Source of the DNA: a virus
IMG/VR virus record: IMGVR_UViG_3300020601_000007
Span: 1-64,000 of that record
Reading direction: 5' to 3' (one strand)
DNA length: 64,000 nucleotides
Made by a program: the position numbers and the translations under genes. Of this stretch, positions 3,719 through 46,330 are shown piece by piece. The notes under the pieces are model-generated. The model was not told where the DNA came from. It saw only the letters and a list, made by a program, of their open reading frames with translations, and did not search any database. The first letter of the stretch is position 1. Every line of letters starts with the position of its first letter.

Positions 3719-4543
3719 TCATTGGGTCCAGAAAGGATGGTCGTCTTCTTCGGTCTTGGCCCAAAAGCACCCTGATACGCCCCGTCCAAACGGGAGCATA
3801 GAGAATGATGCTTTTTCATCGGTAGACCAGCGCATGGCGGCTATCATCCGCCAACCTGAAGCAATCAGAATGAACGGTAGTTGTGCTTCAAGGCTCGGGT
3901 CAAGAGCCTCGCTGCAACCTTCGTTCTCAAAAACACTGACGATGTGTTTCCACATCTCTTGTGTTGTTCTGGCAAAGTGTCTTCGTAGCACCCAGCGCTC
4001 CCGTAGGATTTCGGGGCGTGTTTGCACTGGGTTGTGCTCGAGGATAAATTCCTCACACAGAACCACAAGTTGCTGTATCAGAGCGTCTTCTTTGACACGC
4101 TGGTCCCACACTGTGCTTGCACGGAAATGGTTGTGAAGGTCCTGAGGATTCAATTTCCAAAGTTCCTTCTTTCCGTCATACAGTTTGGCACTTTTGACTT
4201 CATCCAGTGGAGCAGATTGTTCTGGCTCCGTGGTGGTTGTTGGCATGAACGTTCTCATTTCGAGACCACGTTCGTTGGCTATCGTTGTGAGCAAGTGCTC
4301 CTTGAATTTCGTAGCCACCTCAGTGATTGTTTTCCGAGAGTCGTCTTCGTCGCTGCCTCCATCGCCTTGCAGGAACTTGTTCAGTCCCTGCTCAGCCTCG
4401 AGCAGCATGCCAAAATAAATTTCGACGGCTTGACGTGTCTTCTGCATGATGGTGACGAACTGTCCGACAGGTATCGGGGTTTCAAGTTCGATTCCATCAC
4501 AAGAAACAACGTTGCCGTCGTTATCCATGTGGATTCCTTCCAC
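3719..4543 (-). CDS. hypothetical protein
   Basis: 274 aa; motif GTG start. Confidence 0.75.
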   Translation of the reverse strand: MEGIHMDNDGNVVSCDGIELETPIPVGQFVTIMQKTRQAVEIYFGMLLEAEQGLNKFLQGDGGSDEDDSRKTITEVATKFKEHLLTTIANERGLEMRTFMPTTTTEPEQSAPLDEVKSAKLYDGKKELWKLNPQDLHNHFRASTVWDQRVKEDALIQQLVVLCEEFILEHNPVQTRPEILRERWVLRRHFARTTQEMWKHIVSVFENEGCSEALDPSLEAQLPFILIASGWRMIAAMRWSTDEKASFSMLPFGRGVSGCFWAKTEEDDHPFWTQ

Positions 4544-6521: not shown

Positions 6522-7832
6522 TCATTCGTCCCCGGTCTCATCATCAAGTTCGATGTTCATGAGTTGTCGCAGGCGGTTGGCCTGCTGTTGGCTCTTTGAG
6601 GTGACAGCAAGAAGGCGGGCATCGAAGGCGTTCTGAACCCCTGATTGGGGAGCAGTAGCCTCGGTAATGCCGCTGCCGACTACCTGTCGCATGTTTCCGA
6701 GTTTCCTCTTCAAATCACGCTGCTCACGGAACAAACGGTCGATTTCCTTTGGCAGGTCCTCGTCGTCTGAATCGCGCACAACGGTGAGTAGGTCTTCGTA
6801 GTATGCGTTCACCGAAGAGACAACTTCTCGAGCAACGTCCTGTCGCAGATATTCCATCTGGCGGGCGTCGTCAACATATCCAAGAAGACGGAAGGTCGTT
6901 GCCGACGAAGCCGTGACACGCACGAGTTCGCCGTCTTCTCCTTCTTCGTAGGAGTCTTCTATCAGGTTCACAGTTCCGAACCAGTTGATGAGTTCCGAAA
7001 AGGGCACGAGGTATTCCATGTAGCGTTGGTCTCGATTCCAGTCGGGGATGTAGTAGACACCGCCGGAAGAACCTCCGAAGCGCATGCCGCCGACGTCCTT
7101 TACAGCACGTCGCATGATGGCACGCAGAGCCTCTTGGTCCACGGTGGTGGCTTCCCGAATCAATCCTTGTCGTAGGGTGTTGGTCACTTCCCGAATTTGC
7201 TCGGGACTCACCTTCACTGATGCATCCCATGGCGTGACTTCGTAAAGTCCAGCCAGTTCGCTCAGTTCCGCACGGGTCGAATTTTCCAGTGTTCGTCCAT
7301 GCAGGGTTTGGTGCACATATCGTCGGGTCCACTTGTAAAGTTCGCTTCCTCGTTGTGGTGGGATGTAGCGGATTCGGAAGAGGTCTTCCGTCACGCTGTC
7401 CCACTGTCCGGTAGCGACGTTCTTTCCTCGCCATCGGCGAACAAGTTTCCATTCCTTGCTATGTCGCAACATGACGACTTCGTAGAAGACTCTGGCGACT
7501 CTGTTGCCGCTTTTGTCTTCCCAGTCATCTGTCTCGACAAGACCAGCGTCTCGGTTCAAGTCCTTCAATGCAAAAGAGAAGGCTTTGCTTCCGCTCCGTG
7601 GTCTGGGCACCCAAGAATCCCAATCAATCCCATGGTGGGACCAATCGTATGGTTCTGATGCCCCGTAGCCGGGTATTCCCAACTCTCGTCCTTTCGAGAC
7701 CAATTCCTCATAGGGAACTGTGCCAGCAAAAATGGCATAGAACCCGAGGTGGCCCCGACAAGGGACTTCGGTGTTGTTACTCACGAAGCCCTCTTCTTCA
7801 AGCGGGCTTCTTTGGTTTGCGTCATTTGACAC
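6522..7832 (-). CDS. DUF6744/DUF3150-like protein
   Basis: GGVYYIP motif and helical C-terminus; motif GTG at 7832; family recalled, not searched. Confidence 0.5.
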   Translation of the reverse strand: MSNDANQRSPLEEEGFVSNNTEVPCRGHLGFYAIFAGTVPYEELVSKGRELGIPGYGASEPYDWSHHGIDWDSWVPRPRSGSKAFSFALKDLNRDAGLVETDDWEDKSGNRVARVFYEVVMLRHSKEWKLVRRWRGKNVATGQWDSVTEDLFRIRYIPPQRGSELYKWTRRYVHQTLHGRTLENSTRAELSELAGLYEVTPWDASVKVSPEQIREVTNTLRQGLIREATTVDQEALRAIMRRAVKDVGGMRFGGSSGGVYYIPDWNRDQRYMEYLVPFSELINWFGTVNLIEDSYEEGEDGELVRVTASSATTFRLLGYVDDARQMEYLRQDVAREVVSSVNAYYEDLLTVVRDSDDEDLPKEIDRLFREQRDLKRKLGNMRQVVGSGITEATAPQSGVQNAFDARLLAVTSKSQQQANRLRQLMNIELDDETGDE

Positions 7833-7867: not shown

Positions 7868-8113
7868 TCAAGCCATCTCGTCAGACCATTCGTCACGCAC
7901 AGCGTTGGCGCTGGCGGATGCAGCCATCATGGCTTCCATCATGGTCAGACGGGCAAAGATATGAGCACACACGAATGTTGGTCCGATGATGCTGCCTCGT
8001 CCGGGCAGCGCCACTTCTACGACAACATCGTCCAAAGCAACCCCGTCAATGTTGAGGGTCACTTGACTTCCGATGTCTTCTTTCGTGTATGTTTTGTCGT
8101 TTTGATTCGACAC
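7868..8113 (-). CDS. hypothetical protein
   Basis: Motif GTG start. Confidence 0.6.
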   Translation of the reverse strand: MSNQNDKTYTKEDIGSQVTLNIDGVALDDVVVEVALPGRGSIIGPTFVCAHIFARLTMMEAMMAASASANAVRDEWSDEMA

Positions 8114-21382: not shown

Positions 21383-21904
21383 GATTGACTTACGGGTGGA
21401 GCGACGGTTTGCTGAACCGACCGCTCCGGGCAGGAGGCTTTGAATGCCTGCGAGGGCACCTCCCTATGTCTGACCTTGGTGTAGCGTTCGTCCCACGAAA
21501 CAACACATGTGCAAGCACATGGCTGTCGGAGTTCGATACCCTTACATGAAATCCCCGAAGGCGGGTTAAGCCTCCATTCACGCTCTCATTCCTTCAGCAC
21601 ACCATGTGGGACGGTCAGTCACGAATGAGAGCATTCATGATGTGCTGCGATTGTTACGGGTGGGACTGCTGCTCCGCACAGCAGCCCCGGCGAGACACTG
21701 CAAAGGTGAAGAGCAGCGTCAAGGTCTTGGTTGTTTGTCCCCGGGAACGAATCCCTTCGGCGCATCCACAAGACAACGGATAACGCACAACGATTGACGA
21801 ATGTTCCAATCAGTCCACAGCCGCCCTAATCGGAGACGACGGCTTGTGGGCCAATGGGCGTATTTGGGCACCTTCCCTCGAATAAATCCAAGTTCCAGCG
21901 ACCA

Positions 21905-21945
21905 CGCAAAAGAAAAACGGTCAGCAAATTTGCATCTGCTGACCA
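21905..21945 (-). terminator. hairpin plus TTTTTCTTTTGCG terminator-like element
   Basis: GGTCAGCAGAT...ATTTGCTGACC stem followed by a U-tract. Confidence 0.55.
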
Positions 21946-22197
21946 TTCCTCTCCAATTGACGACTGGCAACCCTCACGAGGTAAATCACCTCGGTATTGG
22001 GTTTGCCGGACGAGACTGCCTTGCTTGGCGGCTTGTTGGTTTTTTCGCCGCAGCATCGTTCTCTCGATGCTTATGGGGTGGAGAAACAAGTCCGTTTCAC
22101 CCCGAACCCTCCGTTCGGGTTCTTTCAAGTCCTCTTGCCCTTTTGCCTGTCGGCAGGGAAAGACCCTACCGGGTCTTTTGAGGCTTAAACAGTCTCA

Positions 22198-22473
22198 AAC
22201 GATTGGCTACCCTCCGGAGGAATAATCCTCCTTTGGGTGCCACATGCTGCGAGCCCCATAGTGGCAAGGGGGGCAATTCGTCACCGCCCGCAGCACTAAC
22301 TGAGCATGGTGTGCCACCACCATTGATTGCTCAGATAACGATTGGCTACCCGCCGGAGGAATAATCCTCCTTTGGGTGCCACATGCTGCGCTCTCCCCAT
22401 AGTGGCATGGGTCAATGTGCACGTCAGGACTTGACGGTGTCGCAGCACTAACTGAGCATGGTGCCCAGATAAC
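22198..22473 (-). ncRNA. two tandem copies of pseudoknotted structured repeat D
   Basis: UGCUGCG/CGCAGCA stem; CCC(C)/GGG(G) hairpin whose loop UGCCAC can pair with downstream GUGGCA; GGAGGA/UCCUCC hairpin; third copy at 31025. Confidence 0.65.
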
Positions 22474-22487
22474 GACTGAGGGTCGTC

Positions 22488-22530
22488 TCCCCTCCAGTGT
22501 ATATACGCTGGAAGGAGTGATAACACTCAA
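22488..22530 (-). promoter_or_regulatory. promoter-like repeat C, copy 1
   Basis: CCCCTCCA(G/T)TGTATATACGCTG plus GTGATA(A/G)CAC; 4 copies in the window. Confidence 0.6.
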
Positions 22531-22837
22531 GAAAACCTCTCCCTTTCAAGCCTCAATTCCGTCGAATTGTCGGTCTTGAGTGGTTGAGGTGCCTCTGAAC
22601 ATGTTGTTTCGTTGGGCCGTTGATACCATCTCAGGCTTGACCGAACGTATGTTCGTGGCTCAACCGTGGTGAGGCTCAGACTTGCCAGAGTCATCTCCAC
22701 GGAAGGAACAGTTAGCAATCCGGGCCCGTGCACTGTTCAAACAGCGGGCTTCGGTTATCATAGGGCTCTCAGCAGGGGAGACGGTTCACGCCTCCGGGCC
22801 GAGAGGAATATCCCCTCAAACGGGTGGAGAGGTTGTT

Positions 22838-22879
22838 CCCCTCCATTGTATATACGCTGCAAGAAGTGATAGCACTCAC
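22838..22879 (-). promoter_or_regulatory. promoter-like repeat C, copy 2
   Basis: Same TATA core and GTGATAGCAC site. Confidence 0.6.
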
Positions 22880-23010
22880 GCAGGAATACATGTAACGGTT
22901 GCCCCGTAGGGCGGAAAAGGCCGCTCAAGCAGCCTTGGCTGCGTGAGAAGCGTTGTTCAAGTCAGAGACCTGAGAGAGAAGACAGTGCAGTGTGTTGAGC
23001 ACTCAAATGC

Positions 23011-23439: not shown

Positions 23440-23958
23440 TCATTGACTGGGCTCGGTTTTGAAAATGAATCCTTGGTCTCGTCCTCGGGTTGGTCTGGCT
23501 GGAGGTTTTGCACTCCAGTAGTCCTCCAGCCTACTGGAGTGAGGTTTTGCACTCCAGTAGTCCTCCGAGATTTTCATTTCGAGTTCTTGGCGGCGTTGTT
23601 TCACCTTGTAAAGGAAGTTTCTGTGAAACCCCTTTTTCAAGTCTTCAATAGCCTCTTCTCTGCGTTTCTCCGCCCACTCGAACGGAGTTGCACGGTGGCC
23701 ATACTTCTCGATTTTTTCGATAAAAATCGGGTTGTGGCAACTGAGCCCGTTGAAGAGGTTAGCGATGGCCGCTTTTGTGTAGCCCACGGGGGGCTTTGGG
23801 AGGCATGCCACGGCAGCCATGCTTGCTGTAAAAACATCAAGCATGTTCGCAGGGGACTTCCACCGGTATTCATTTTCGTGTTGATTGACAGAAGGCTGTT
23901 CAGCCTTTGCCGTGCGTGGGGAAGTCCCCACGTTGAGTCGATTGATAAAGGTCGACAC
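23440..23958 (-). CDS. hypothetical protein with EDYWSAKP duplication
   Basis: Motif GTG at 23958 (alternative ATG at 23988). Confidence 0.65.
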   Translation of the reverse strand: MSTFINRLNVGTSPRTAKAEQPSVNQHENEYRWKSPANMLDVFTASMAAVACLPKPPVGYTKAAIANLFNGLSCHNPIFIEKIEKYGHRATPFEWAEKRREEAIEDLKKGFHRNFLYKVKQRRQELEMKISEDYWSAKPHSSRLEDYWSAKPPARPTRGRDQGFIFKTEPSQ

Positions 23959-28481: not shown

Positions 28482-28724
28482 TCATTCGTCGGTCAGTTCG
28501 AGCAGTTCGCCAATGAGTTCAGGGACAGAGTTTTCTTCTTCGAGCGAAGCGAATTGCTTCTTGATGAAATCCCTGAGAATTACGATGAGACGGTTCTTCA
28601 TGGCGAGGCGGGCCTCAAGTTCGGCCACCTTTTTCATCGCCAGTTGCACGGCATACGAAATTCGAGCATCCTCTTGGGCTTGCTTGAGTTCTTCGGGTGT
28701 GCGTGGTCCCCATCCTCCCATCAT
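28482..28724 (-). CDS. small coiled-coil protein
   Basis: GGAGG RBS; ATG overlaps the stop of the 31-aa peptide. Confidence 0.6.
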   Translation of the reverse strand: MMGGWGPRTPEELKQAQEDARISYAVQLAMKKVAELEARLAMKNRLIVILRDFIKKQFASLEEENSVPELIGELLELTDE

Positions 28725-30238: not shown

Positions 30239-30275
30239 GCGCAAAAGAAAAATCCCACGGCATCTGCCGTGGGTG
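30239..30275 (-). terminator. hairpin plus TTTTTCTTTTGCG terminator-like element
   Basis: CCCACGGCA-GA-TGCCGTGGG followed by a U-tract. Confidence 0.55.
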
Positions 30276-30976: not shown

Positions 30977-31016
30977 TCCCCCTCCATTGTATATACGCTG
31001 ACAGCAGTGCTATCAG
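30977..31016 (-). promoter_or_regulatory. promoter-like repeat C, copy 3
   Basis: cccctccattgtatatacgctg; operator-like site inverted (gtgctatca). Confidence 0.55.
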
Positions 31017-31024
31017 TCGTGCAT

Positions 31025-31193
31025 AACGATTGGCTACCCGCCGGAGGCTTCTGGCCGACCTCTAAGGCCGTCGTCAGAAGAAGTCTCCTCCTTTGGGTGC
31101 CACATGCTGCGAGCCCCCATAGTGGCAAGGGGGAGCAAAACTTTCAGAGAAAGCCCCCCGCAGCACTACCTGAGCATGGTGCCCAGATAACGG
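31025..31193 (-). ncRNA. structured repeat D, copy 3
   Basis: Conserved core; variable stems replaced by other base-paired stems. Confidence 0.65.
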
Positions 31194-31232
31194 TTGGAGG
31201 GGGTTCGGGAAAACACATACAAAATAACCCTT

Positions 31233-31280
31233 CCCCCTCCATTGTATATACGCTGGAAAGGGTGATAGCACTCAAGAAAA
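31233..31280 (-). promoter_or_regulatory. promoter-like repeat C, copy 4 (head of the left gene array)
   Basis: Same TATA core and GTGATAGCAC site. Confidence 0.6.
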
Positions 31281-31480: not shown

Positions 31481-31789
31481 CTATTTGTTCTTTGGGGGAT
31501 TGATTTCAACCCATCCTCGACGAATGCGCTCCTCCTCAGGGAGGTTTTCTGTCATCGCCCAGAAGGACGTGGTGACGTTTGAGCCATCCTTTCGCTCCGT
31601 CCTCATACGACGGAATTGTGGTCGGCGGCGCAGCAGATTCGCAAGACCAGCGGTAGTGACGCCGTCCTTGGTGTTGCTGTTCAACCAGTCTCGGATAGCG
31701 TGAAAGGTGAGTTCCTTGACGTTGTCGTTTTCCTCATACACACGGAAACAGCGCTCGATATTCTGAACCACTCGGCTGTATCGAGCCAT
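31481..31789 (-). CDS. winged-helix protein (DUF3860-like)
   Basis: IRDWLNSNTKDGVTTAGLANLLRR; family recalled, not searched. Confidence 0.55.
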   Translation of the reverse strand: MARYSRVVQNIERCFRVYEENDNVKELTFHAIRDWLNSNTKDGVTTAGLANLLRRRPQFRRMRTERKDGSNVTTSFWAMTENLPEEERIRRGWVEINPPKNK

Positions 31790-31790
31790 T

Positions 31791-31913
31791 TCAAGTCCTC
31801 CTTGCCATGTATTCATCAATGAGCCGCTGAATGACTTCCCAGTTGGACTCACGGGCGAGGGCGAGGCCCTTCAAACGCTCAAGGTCATATTTTCGGATTC
31901 GGGTTGTGGTCAT
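31791..31913 (-). CDS. small ribbon-helix-helix/antitoxin-like DNA-binding protein
   Basis: MTTTRIRK..LERLK...ESNWEVIQRLI. Confidence 0.6.
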   Translation of the reverse strand: MTTTRIRKYDLERLKGLALARESNWEVIQRLIDEYMARRT

Positions 31914-46014: not shown

Positions 46015-46256
46015 CCTTCCCGAGGAAGCAACAGCGAGAGTGTGCCAACCTTCACTGCCGACGGCTGATTTCCAACCACTACAAGAATTGCGTGAGGTGC
46101 GGAACATGCGCACGCTTGGAGAGGGAGGCGAATGAATGATTGTCAAGCGCTGGTGCCGCCGTTGCGGTCAACAGAAGCCCCTCAAGGATTTCGATGAGGC
46201 AGGAGACCACCTCCGCCGATATTGCAGCGAGAGATGCGTCTCAGGAATCAAGTGAG

Positions 46257-46330
46257 CGCCCCTGCCCGGATTTGAACCGGGGTTATCGGCTCCGCAAGCC
46301 GATGTGATGTCCAAACTACACTACAAGGGC
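46257..46330 (-). tRNA. tRNA-Arg(GCG)
   Basis: Cloverleaf: acceptor GCCCTTG/CAGGGGC, anticodon arm TCGGC-TTGCGGA-GCCGA, T arm CCCGG-TTCAAAT-CCGGG; no encoded CCA; TTTAT box about 28-32 nt upstream. Confidence 0.92.

Follow-up and report, generated by a model that had tools for sequence, protein, structure and literature searches.

Repeat D, a candidate family of promoter-proximal structured RNAs on the minus strand of a 110 kb virus record

Introduction

What is encoded by an element that occurs three times on one strand of a virus record, each time close to a promoter-like sequence? The record (G000) is a 110 kb linear IMG/VR virus record, and the window analysed here comprises its first 64 kb. 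It encodes a family B DNA polymerase (PolB), the RNA polymerase largest subunit, a thermosome subunit and a primase. PolB, a thermosome subunit and an RNA polymerase A-type subunit form the gene set given for magrovirus group D in the respective section of Philosof et al. (2017, PMC5434244), and the record resembles this group in all three genes. The part of Xu et al. (2023, PMC10160649) on group D considers it as possibly plasmid-like. Elements of group D are so poorly known that their status as viruses or plasmids is still debated. By gene content only, the record can be placed with group D of the marine magroviruses, as an archaeal virus or mobile element. The sections of both papers that deal with group D describe no ncRNAs, promoters or junction motif, nor do they mention a structured ncRNA in magroviruses. 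Here, we ask whether the repeated element, termed Repeat D, is a structured RNA and which role it might have.

Results

Repeat D Is Present in Three Copies and Has One Syntenic Ortholog

Repeat D was found three times in the window, always on the minus strand, in reads of the sequence, with a repeat finder (families D6-D8) and by alignment, which confirmed the three copies that a preliminary description had placed at 22198-22473 and 31025-31193. Two copies are arranged in tandem with a spacing of 139 nt: copy A at 22337-22473 (22337..22478 together with its 5′ junction-like sequence CAGTCGTT at 22471-22478) and copy B at 22198-22336. Copy C is located at 31025-31193 (31025..31199 with its 5′ sequence CAACCGTT). 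The 3′ ending of all three is CAATCGTT, located at 22337-22344, 22198-22205 and 31025-31032, respectively, and the unit has a length of ~135-170 nt. An isolated module of the D 3′ hairpin (repeat family D7) is found at 21957..21996 on the minus strand, just before a terminator; it consists of GGCA-A-ACCC-AAUA-stem-UGA-GGGU-UGCC and is followed by AGUCGUC.

The only relative obtained was G001 (IMGVR_UViG_3300012920_000028, 72.8 kb), which encodes an RNA polymerase with ~51% identity and is syntenic with G000 from 31.4 kb onward. A covariance model (R1) identified copies A, B and C (153, 112 and 141 bits) as well as one D-like element, D′, in the relative (4055-4207, minus strand, 104 bits), and nothing else in the 183 kb searched; D′ had been included in the building of this model. 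Altogether, four D sequences from two genomes could be compared. Since the three copies are paralogs, blocks that are identical in them represent one observation, not three.

Searches with exact-core and degenerate D patterns against viral contigs yielded G001 only. Among metagenome contigs a 3.7 kb contig (L015, 99.9% identical), G001 and chance matches were retrieved; the 3.7 kb contig shows no differences to G000 inside Repeat D. The same contig has a length difference of ~13 nt in a short tandem repeat, D12 (23527-23541). Genome contigs searched by protein and pattern gave only bacterial chance matches, and the phage collection searched by DNA and protein yielded no match. A BLAST match at 28631-28652 of G001 was rejected as D, being an unrelated stretch with no other D feature.

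The D Loci Lie Downstream of Promoter-Like Elements and Are Not Followed by an ORF

Both D loci had been reported to be directly downstream of a promoter termed repeat C, and indeed they were found 36-60 nt after a repeat C promoter-like element (repeat family D5, minus strand), which is located at 22489..22535 for copies A/B and at 31234..31280 for copy C. At the A/B locus it consists of the palindrome GTGTTATCAC, followed by GCGTATATACA and a hairpin GGAGGGG...CCCTC; the general layout is an operator-like palindrome, GCGTATATACA, a GGAGGGG...CCCCTCC hairpin and a junction-like CNNCCGT. This architecture is found four times in G000 (22489-22535, 22838-22884, 30979-31025 and 31234-31280) and four times in the relative (L007, at about 4243, 4777, 8021 and 8107). 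The consensus over both genomes comprises a GTG(A/C)TA(N)CAC palindrome, GCGTA(T/A)(A/G)TACAA(T/C)GGAG, a G-rich/C-rich hairpin and C(A/C)NCCGT. The hairpin loop has a few nucleotides in some copies and tens of nucleotides in others, and in four of the eight copies the G of the C(A/C)NCCGT motif is located 24-29 nt past the TATA-like box.

Just upstream of the promoter pair, an ORF (31481-31852, minus strand) codes for a small, basic and well-conserved protein of 123 amino acids. It has 13 relatives with 68-99% identity on metagenome contigs of up to 120 kb, and no Pfam domain. This protein is possibly a regulator of the palindromic operator and is a useful marker for gathering related elements.

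The second recurring element is the junction motif CA(A/T)TCGTG, for which 56 matches were found on the minus strand of positions 1-31032 of the window, compared to 13 expected. About 40 minus-strand ORFs between 1 and 31 kb begin at the GTG of this motif, and the stop codon of the upstream gene (mostly TGA) is located 4-19 nt before it. The 36 nt upstream of the motif fold better than control positions (P = 2e-5), and for 24 out of 37 coding junctions the end of the upstream hairpin falls on the C or A of CA. On both sides of each D copy the motif occurs in a CAxyCGTT form, in which GTT replaces the coding GTG, as it does in the non-coding units generally. The junction motif could be an initiator for a virus-encoded polymerase or an RNA cleavage site giving leaderless mRNAs.

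The A/B unit is closed by a hairpin with a TTTTTCTTTTGCG tract (21904..21950, minus strand), where a weak ctRNA match reflects the hairpin with its U tract. Hairpins followed by a TTTT(T)CTTTT(T)G(C/T)G tract were found on the minus strand at 30252, 21917, 19713 and 11462 of G000 and at 7612, 4009 and 930 of the relative. The hairpins differ in sequence and the tract is nearly invariant in both genomes; these elements are likely terminators inside the co-oriented array.

D′ lies in the syntenic place, in the order X RNA, promoter, D′ and hairpin with TTTTCTTTTTGTGC (oligo-T terminator). No ORF is present in these units, which read promoter, D, terminator in the relative and promoter, D, D, Y, terminator in G000. 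A 5′ leader, riboswitch or IRES-like element had been considered for Repeat D. Between copies A/B and the oligo-T terminator at ~21917 there is no ORF, the next element after copy C is another promoter, and the ortholog runs directly into a terminator; an ORF with a junction-type start does not follow D. Since both genomes show the succession of promoter-like element, D and terminator and lack an ORF there, we consider a leader, riboswitch or IRES unlikely; the layout agrees with a stand-alone small RNA gene. The relative has no D between the promoter pair that matches 30979-31280, so that copy C is an insertion in G000 relative to G001; it is flanked by CGTTAT on both sides. Since copy number and position differ between the two genomes, D is dispensable at the 31 kb site.

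Two further non-coding stretches of the minus strand are shared by both genomes. Unit X (22616-22827; L007 4346-4558, minus strand) is located between two repeat C elements, is 71% identical between G000 and G001 and shows seven compensatory pairs with two-sided changes (RNAalifold) and no Rfam match. Stretch Z (21711-21790; L007 4606-4686, minus strand) is 78% identical, and its place in the array differs between the two genomes.

The Minus Strand of Repeat D Likely Encodes a Folded RNA

All structural features that had been listed for Repeat D were found in the sequence of the copies, together with one additional helix. This helix, P0, is a 7-bp hairpin (CUGGGCA/UGCUCAG) that uses CACCATGCTCAG of the conserved block CACCATGCTCAG(T/G)TAG as 3′ arm. 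In copy A it reads CUGGGCA-CCA-UGCUCAG (22452..22468, minus strand); in copy B a G-U pair is changed to A-U and the 3-nt loop is replaced by a 21-nt hairpin-forming insert. The core that follows (22383..22448 of copy A, minus strand) is closed by P1, GUGCUGCG/CGCAGCAU, a helix of 8 bp with a G-U as outermost pair (22441-22448 with 22383-22390). Inside the core, P2 is represented by three unrelated hairpins among the copies, CGUCA/UGACG, GGCGGU/AUUGCC and GGCUUUC/GAAAGUU (22422-22436 in copy A, minus strand). P3, CCC(CC)/GGG(GG), carries the invariant loop (U/A)UGCCACUAU; on the minus strand of copy A its strands are located at 22409-22411 and 22396-22398 and the UGCCAC of the loop at 22402-22407. 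The last part is the 3′ hairpin, ACCC-AAA-GGAGG...CCUCC-GG(C/A)-GGGU, after which the unit ends with CAATCGTT. In copy A (22343..22381, minus strand) it consists of P4a (UGGC/GCCA), P4b (ACCC/GGGU), an AAA/GGC internal loop and P5 (GGAGG/CCUCC). In copy C the loop of P5 is replaced by a 33-nt longer self-complementary segment.

The minus strand of Repeat D has MFE z-scores of -3.5 to -4.9 in the three copies and of -3.3 to -4.9 over both genomes. Shuffling gave P values of 0.12, 0.03 and 0.10 for the P2 hairpins (~0.01 when hand-combined by Fisher's method), and both inserts fold as helix extensions (shuffle P 0.015 and 0.07). The proposed helices contain at least eight G-U pairs, which would be A-C mismatches on the opposite strand, so that the many G-U pairs are specific for the minus strand.

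D′ retains the P3 hairpin, changed from CCCC/GGGG to (U)CCUC/GAGG(A), the 3′ hairpin and a possible loop-linker pseudoknot. In P5, GGAGG/CCUCC is changed to GGGGG/CCCCC, which is one two-sided compensatory change (A-U to G-C). The four-row alignment fitted to the model contains one two-sided change in 30 pairs, with covariation measures not above those of shuffles. P0 and P1 could not be aligned between D′ and the G000 copies; the P1 of D′ (GCGCCC/GGGCGU) derives from MFE folding alone, P2 is missing from this MFE fold, and the plus strand of D′ reaches a z-score of -4.7, a fold equal to or better than that of the minus strand. The idea of a structured non-coding RNA on the minus strand is supported by these data, and we consider it likely that Repeat D is a real structured RNA; the fold proposed for it is plausible but thinly supported.

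A Possible Pseudoknot Draws on the Base of the 3′ Hairpin

Directly 3′ of P1 the copies contain GUGGCA (22377..22382 in copy A, minus strand), which is complementary to the P3 loop. UGCCAC and GUGGCA would form six Watson-Crick pairs with -10.4 kcal/mol (shuffle P 0.016-0.033 in G000, to be counted as one observation because the copies are identical there). For the UGUCGC loop of the relative, GUGGUA at the equivalent position is a possible partner, with three wobble pairs, and GCGGC five bases further on is an alternative (-8.4 kcal/mol); the shuffle P is ~0.2. According to the model alignment, the ortholog retains all five pseudoknot pairs via one-sided changes.

In copy A, GUGGCA overlaps with UGGC, for which GCCA (22343-22346), located at the foot of the 3′ hairpin, is an alternative partner. 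This basal stem is UGGC/GCCA in G000, GGCUU/AAGCC in the relative and GGCA/UGCC in the isolated module at 21957-21996, and it is worth about -7 kcal/mol in G000 and about -10 in G001. Pseudoknot and basal stem draw on the same GGC stretch, and the same competition is possible in the relative. The basal stem gives D the geometry of most coding junctions, where the hairpin ends at the C: the C of CAAUCG is where the 3′ hairpin of copy A terminates, a geometry shared with the hairpins that precede 24 of the 37 coding junctions. Of the pseudoknot described earlier, the complementarity between loop and GUGGCA is present, and the pairing itself is weakly supported and competes with the base of the 3′ hairpin. 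As its partner overlaps with the basal stem, we regard the pseudoknot as possible but not as established; it may take turns with the junction hairpin.

Copy B carries GUGGCAC, the string found at the pseudoknot partner, once more in its P0-loop insert (22310-22330, minus strand), and thus the P3 loop of this copy has two possible partners.

Repeat D Has No Match in Rfam and No Conserved ORF

Repeat D was compared with Rfam 15 in searches of 10.5, 1.1 and 0.9 kb covering both genomes. No match to D was obtained at the gathering score or at E up to 10; the only hit at gathering scores was a tRNA outside D. No known family can hence be assigned to D, and the misfit to hammerhead and canonical HDV ribozymes noted by eye in the preliminary description extends to the other Rfam families. 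Models of self-cleaving ribozymes (hammerhead, HDV-like, twister, pistol, hatchet) likewise gave none at E up to 10, and the ribozyme suggested earlier found no catalytic-core match. ARAGORN detected no tRNA or tmRNA at D, the only tRNA of the window being located at 46256-46330. The internal loop AAA versus GGC (GGA in copy B) has no GA dinucleotide on both strands and does not fit the kink-turn of L7Ae-binding RNAs, in which tandem sheared G-A pairs come after a 3-nt bulge.

No ORF is conserved across the copies and the ortholog, and the frames of copies A and B differ due to the 139-nt spacing. Neither G000 nor G001 yielded a target complementary to D, be it to the conserved or to the variable segments, and the copies have no segment in common that is complementary to the junction motif. 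With neither a shared junction-complementary segment nor a repeated target in the genome, the trans-acting partner of the junction system, another of the earlier suggestions, found no support. Pfam searches revealed no RNA-binding or RNase domain among 30 window proteins, 20 of which are left-arm proteins with junction-type starts; almost all of these 20 are without a family.

Discussion

The invariant blocks (P3 loop, P1 strands and AAA/GGC loop) together with hairpins that are freely replaced suggest a folded RNA with a specific recognition surface. Our preferred reading, to which we give a probability of roughly 45%, is that Repeat D is a stand-alone structured RNA with a function in trans, serving to bind protein or as a scaffold or decoy. 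This mode of action was chosen because no recurring complementary target was found and no RNA-binding or RNase domain is present in the proteins scanned. D would accordingly represent a small family of minus-strand ncRNA genes of ~135-170 nt. Each unit would begin at a CNNYCG|UU form of the junction, just past the repeat C element and a promoter-proximal hairpin, and its end would be formed by an oligo-U terminator or by a hairpin that directly adjoins the following junction motif. The RNA would consist of the 5′ hairpin P0, the P1-closed core with a freely replaceable P2 and a P3 with a constrained loop of 9-10 nt, and the 3′ hairpin with its conserved AAA/GGC internal loop. The invariant P3 loop might serve as recognition surface, pairing either within the molecule as a pseudoknot or with a partner, and the RNA would be stable. 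The repeat and its limits, the syntenic ortholog and the lack of an Rfam match and of a downstream ORF are observed; transcription of D, the exact ends of the RNA and its action in trans are what we infer.

Alternatively, D could act in cis during transcription, as a read-through RNA similar to put or EAR or as a two-state switch that gates the 3′ junction. The promoter-proximal position at both loci, upstream of the terminators with the invariant tail (30252, 21917, 19713, 11462), would fit, as would the use of the same GGC by pseudoknot and basal stem (-10.4 versus ~-7 kcal/mol; -8.4 versus ~-10 in the relative) and a basal stem that mimics the hairpin geometry of 24 of the 37 coding junctions. 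However, the G001 unit that begins with the promoter pair at ~8021-8107 contains a terminator (7612) and no D, transcripts starting at the promoter at 30998 would be without D, and the comparison covers only two lineages. We regard a cis-acting element as unlikely.

Somewhat less probable still is a repeated DNA with no RNA function, either a junction-recombination cassette or a protein-binding element at the DNA level. It would fit that copy C is inserted relative to G001 with CGTTAT on both flanks and that A and B form a tandem duplication; recent duplication or gene conversion may account for the identical blocks. Yet the element is conserved in a relative with ~51% RNA polymerase identity, G-U pairs and one compensatory change preserve its hairpins, and its variable parts are swapped for other hairpins.

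Very unlikely, in our view, is a third group of readings in which D is a two-state RNA or the RNA part of a machinery for leaderless mRNAs. In the first case D would be tied to the hairpin-CAAUCG punctuation of the genome, with P3 loop and junction hairpin as rivals for the GGC, and would so gate events at the junction. In the second, D would help to split the left arm into ~40 RNAs that start with G|UG (coding) or G|UU (non-coding); this, if true, would be a virus-encoded route to leaderless mRNAs.

Of even lower probability is a stability element that, like an exoribonuclease-resistant xrRNA, blocks 5′-3′ decay. The layout of the G000 copies, with a P1-closed junction, a loop that can pair with the 3′ linker, a following hairpin and tandem copies, prompts this reading, but no xrRNA model matched at E up to 10, in the relative only a terminator follows D, so that there is nothing to protect, and the absence of P2 from the MFE fold there would mean that the three-way junction is not conserved. 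A ribozyme that cleaves itself at the flanking junctions, or cuts the left-arm hairpin-CAAUCG junctions in trans, is highly improbable: D is bracketed by junction motifs with GUU instead of the GUG start and belongs to the three ncRNAs that are conserved in the array, but it matches no known ribozyme family, has no conserved stretch complementary to CA(A/U)UCGUG, and ~40 junctions have no adjacent D. Least probable of all is a small peptide encoded by an ATG ORF over the 3′ hairpin (12 amino acids in A/B, 23 in C): its frame is uninterrupted in each of the three copies and preserved by the 33-nt insert, and the C/A difference is synonymous, but the mini-ORF with its ATG and stop is absent from G001, a junction-type GTG start is lacking, an in-frame insert is expected by chance in ~1 of 5 cases, and the long ORF at 22207-22530 takes A and B in different frames.

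A conserved and promoter-driven array of folded RNAs (D, X and Z) delimited by the gene-start motif of ~40 genes points to an unusual organisation of gene expression. D, if expressed, would be a new RNA family and a handle for defining transcript ends.

Comparison With Known Systems

HK022 put and Bacillus EAR are promoter-proximal structured RNAs of processive antitermination. D resembles them in being a structured RNA close to a promoter and ahead of terminators, within a long array of co-oriented genes; it differs in that no model match was obtained and in that, while D lies between promoter and terminators in the G000 units, it is absent from the G001 unit with the terminator at 7612. To our knowledge, no mechanism of this type is known in archaea.

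Flavivirus xrRNAs contain a P1-closed junction, a hairpin loop that pairs with the 3′ linker and a following hairpin, and occur in tandem copies. In D, the junction is likewise closed by P1, the linker just 3′ of P1 shows complementarity to a hairpin loop, another hairpin comes next and two copies are arranged in tandem. This three-way-junction layout with loop-linker complementarity is found in the three G000 copies, whereas P2 is absent from the G001 MFE fold, and the pseudoknot is weakly supported. In contrast to the xrRNAs, D matches no Rfam model, its ortholog in G001 has no P2 in the MFE fold and no downstream RNA to be protected, and it belongs to an archaeal DNA element.

The stand-alone RNA acting in trans of our preferred reading can be compared with the adenovirus VA RNAs, the EBERs of EBV and the phi29 pRNA, which are highly folded ncRNAs with their own promoter, often present as two adjacent copies; in the pRNA a constrained loop mediates tertiary or intermolecular pairing. 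D shows no similarity to them in sequence or covariance model, has an archaeal host and is known here from sequence alone. It shares with them that it is ~140-170 nt long, folded, non-coding, headed by a promoter-like element and present in adjacent copies, and its loop could mediate a pairing as well.
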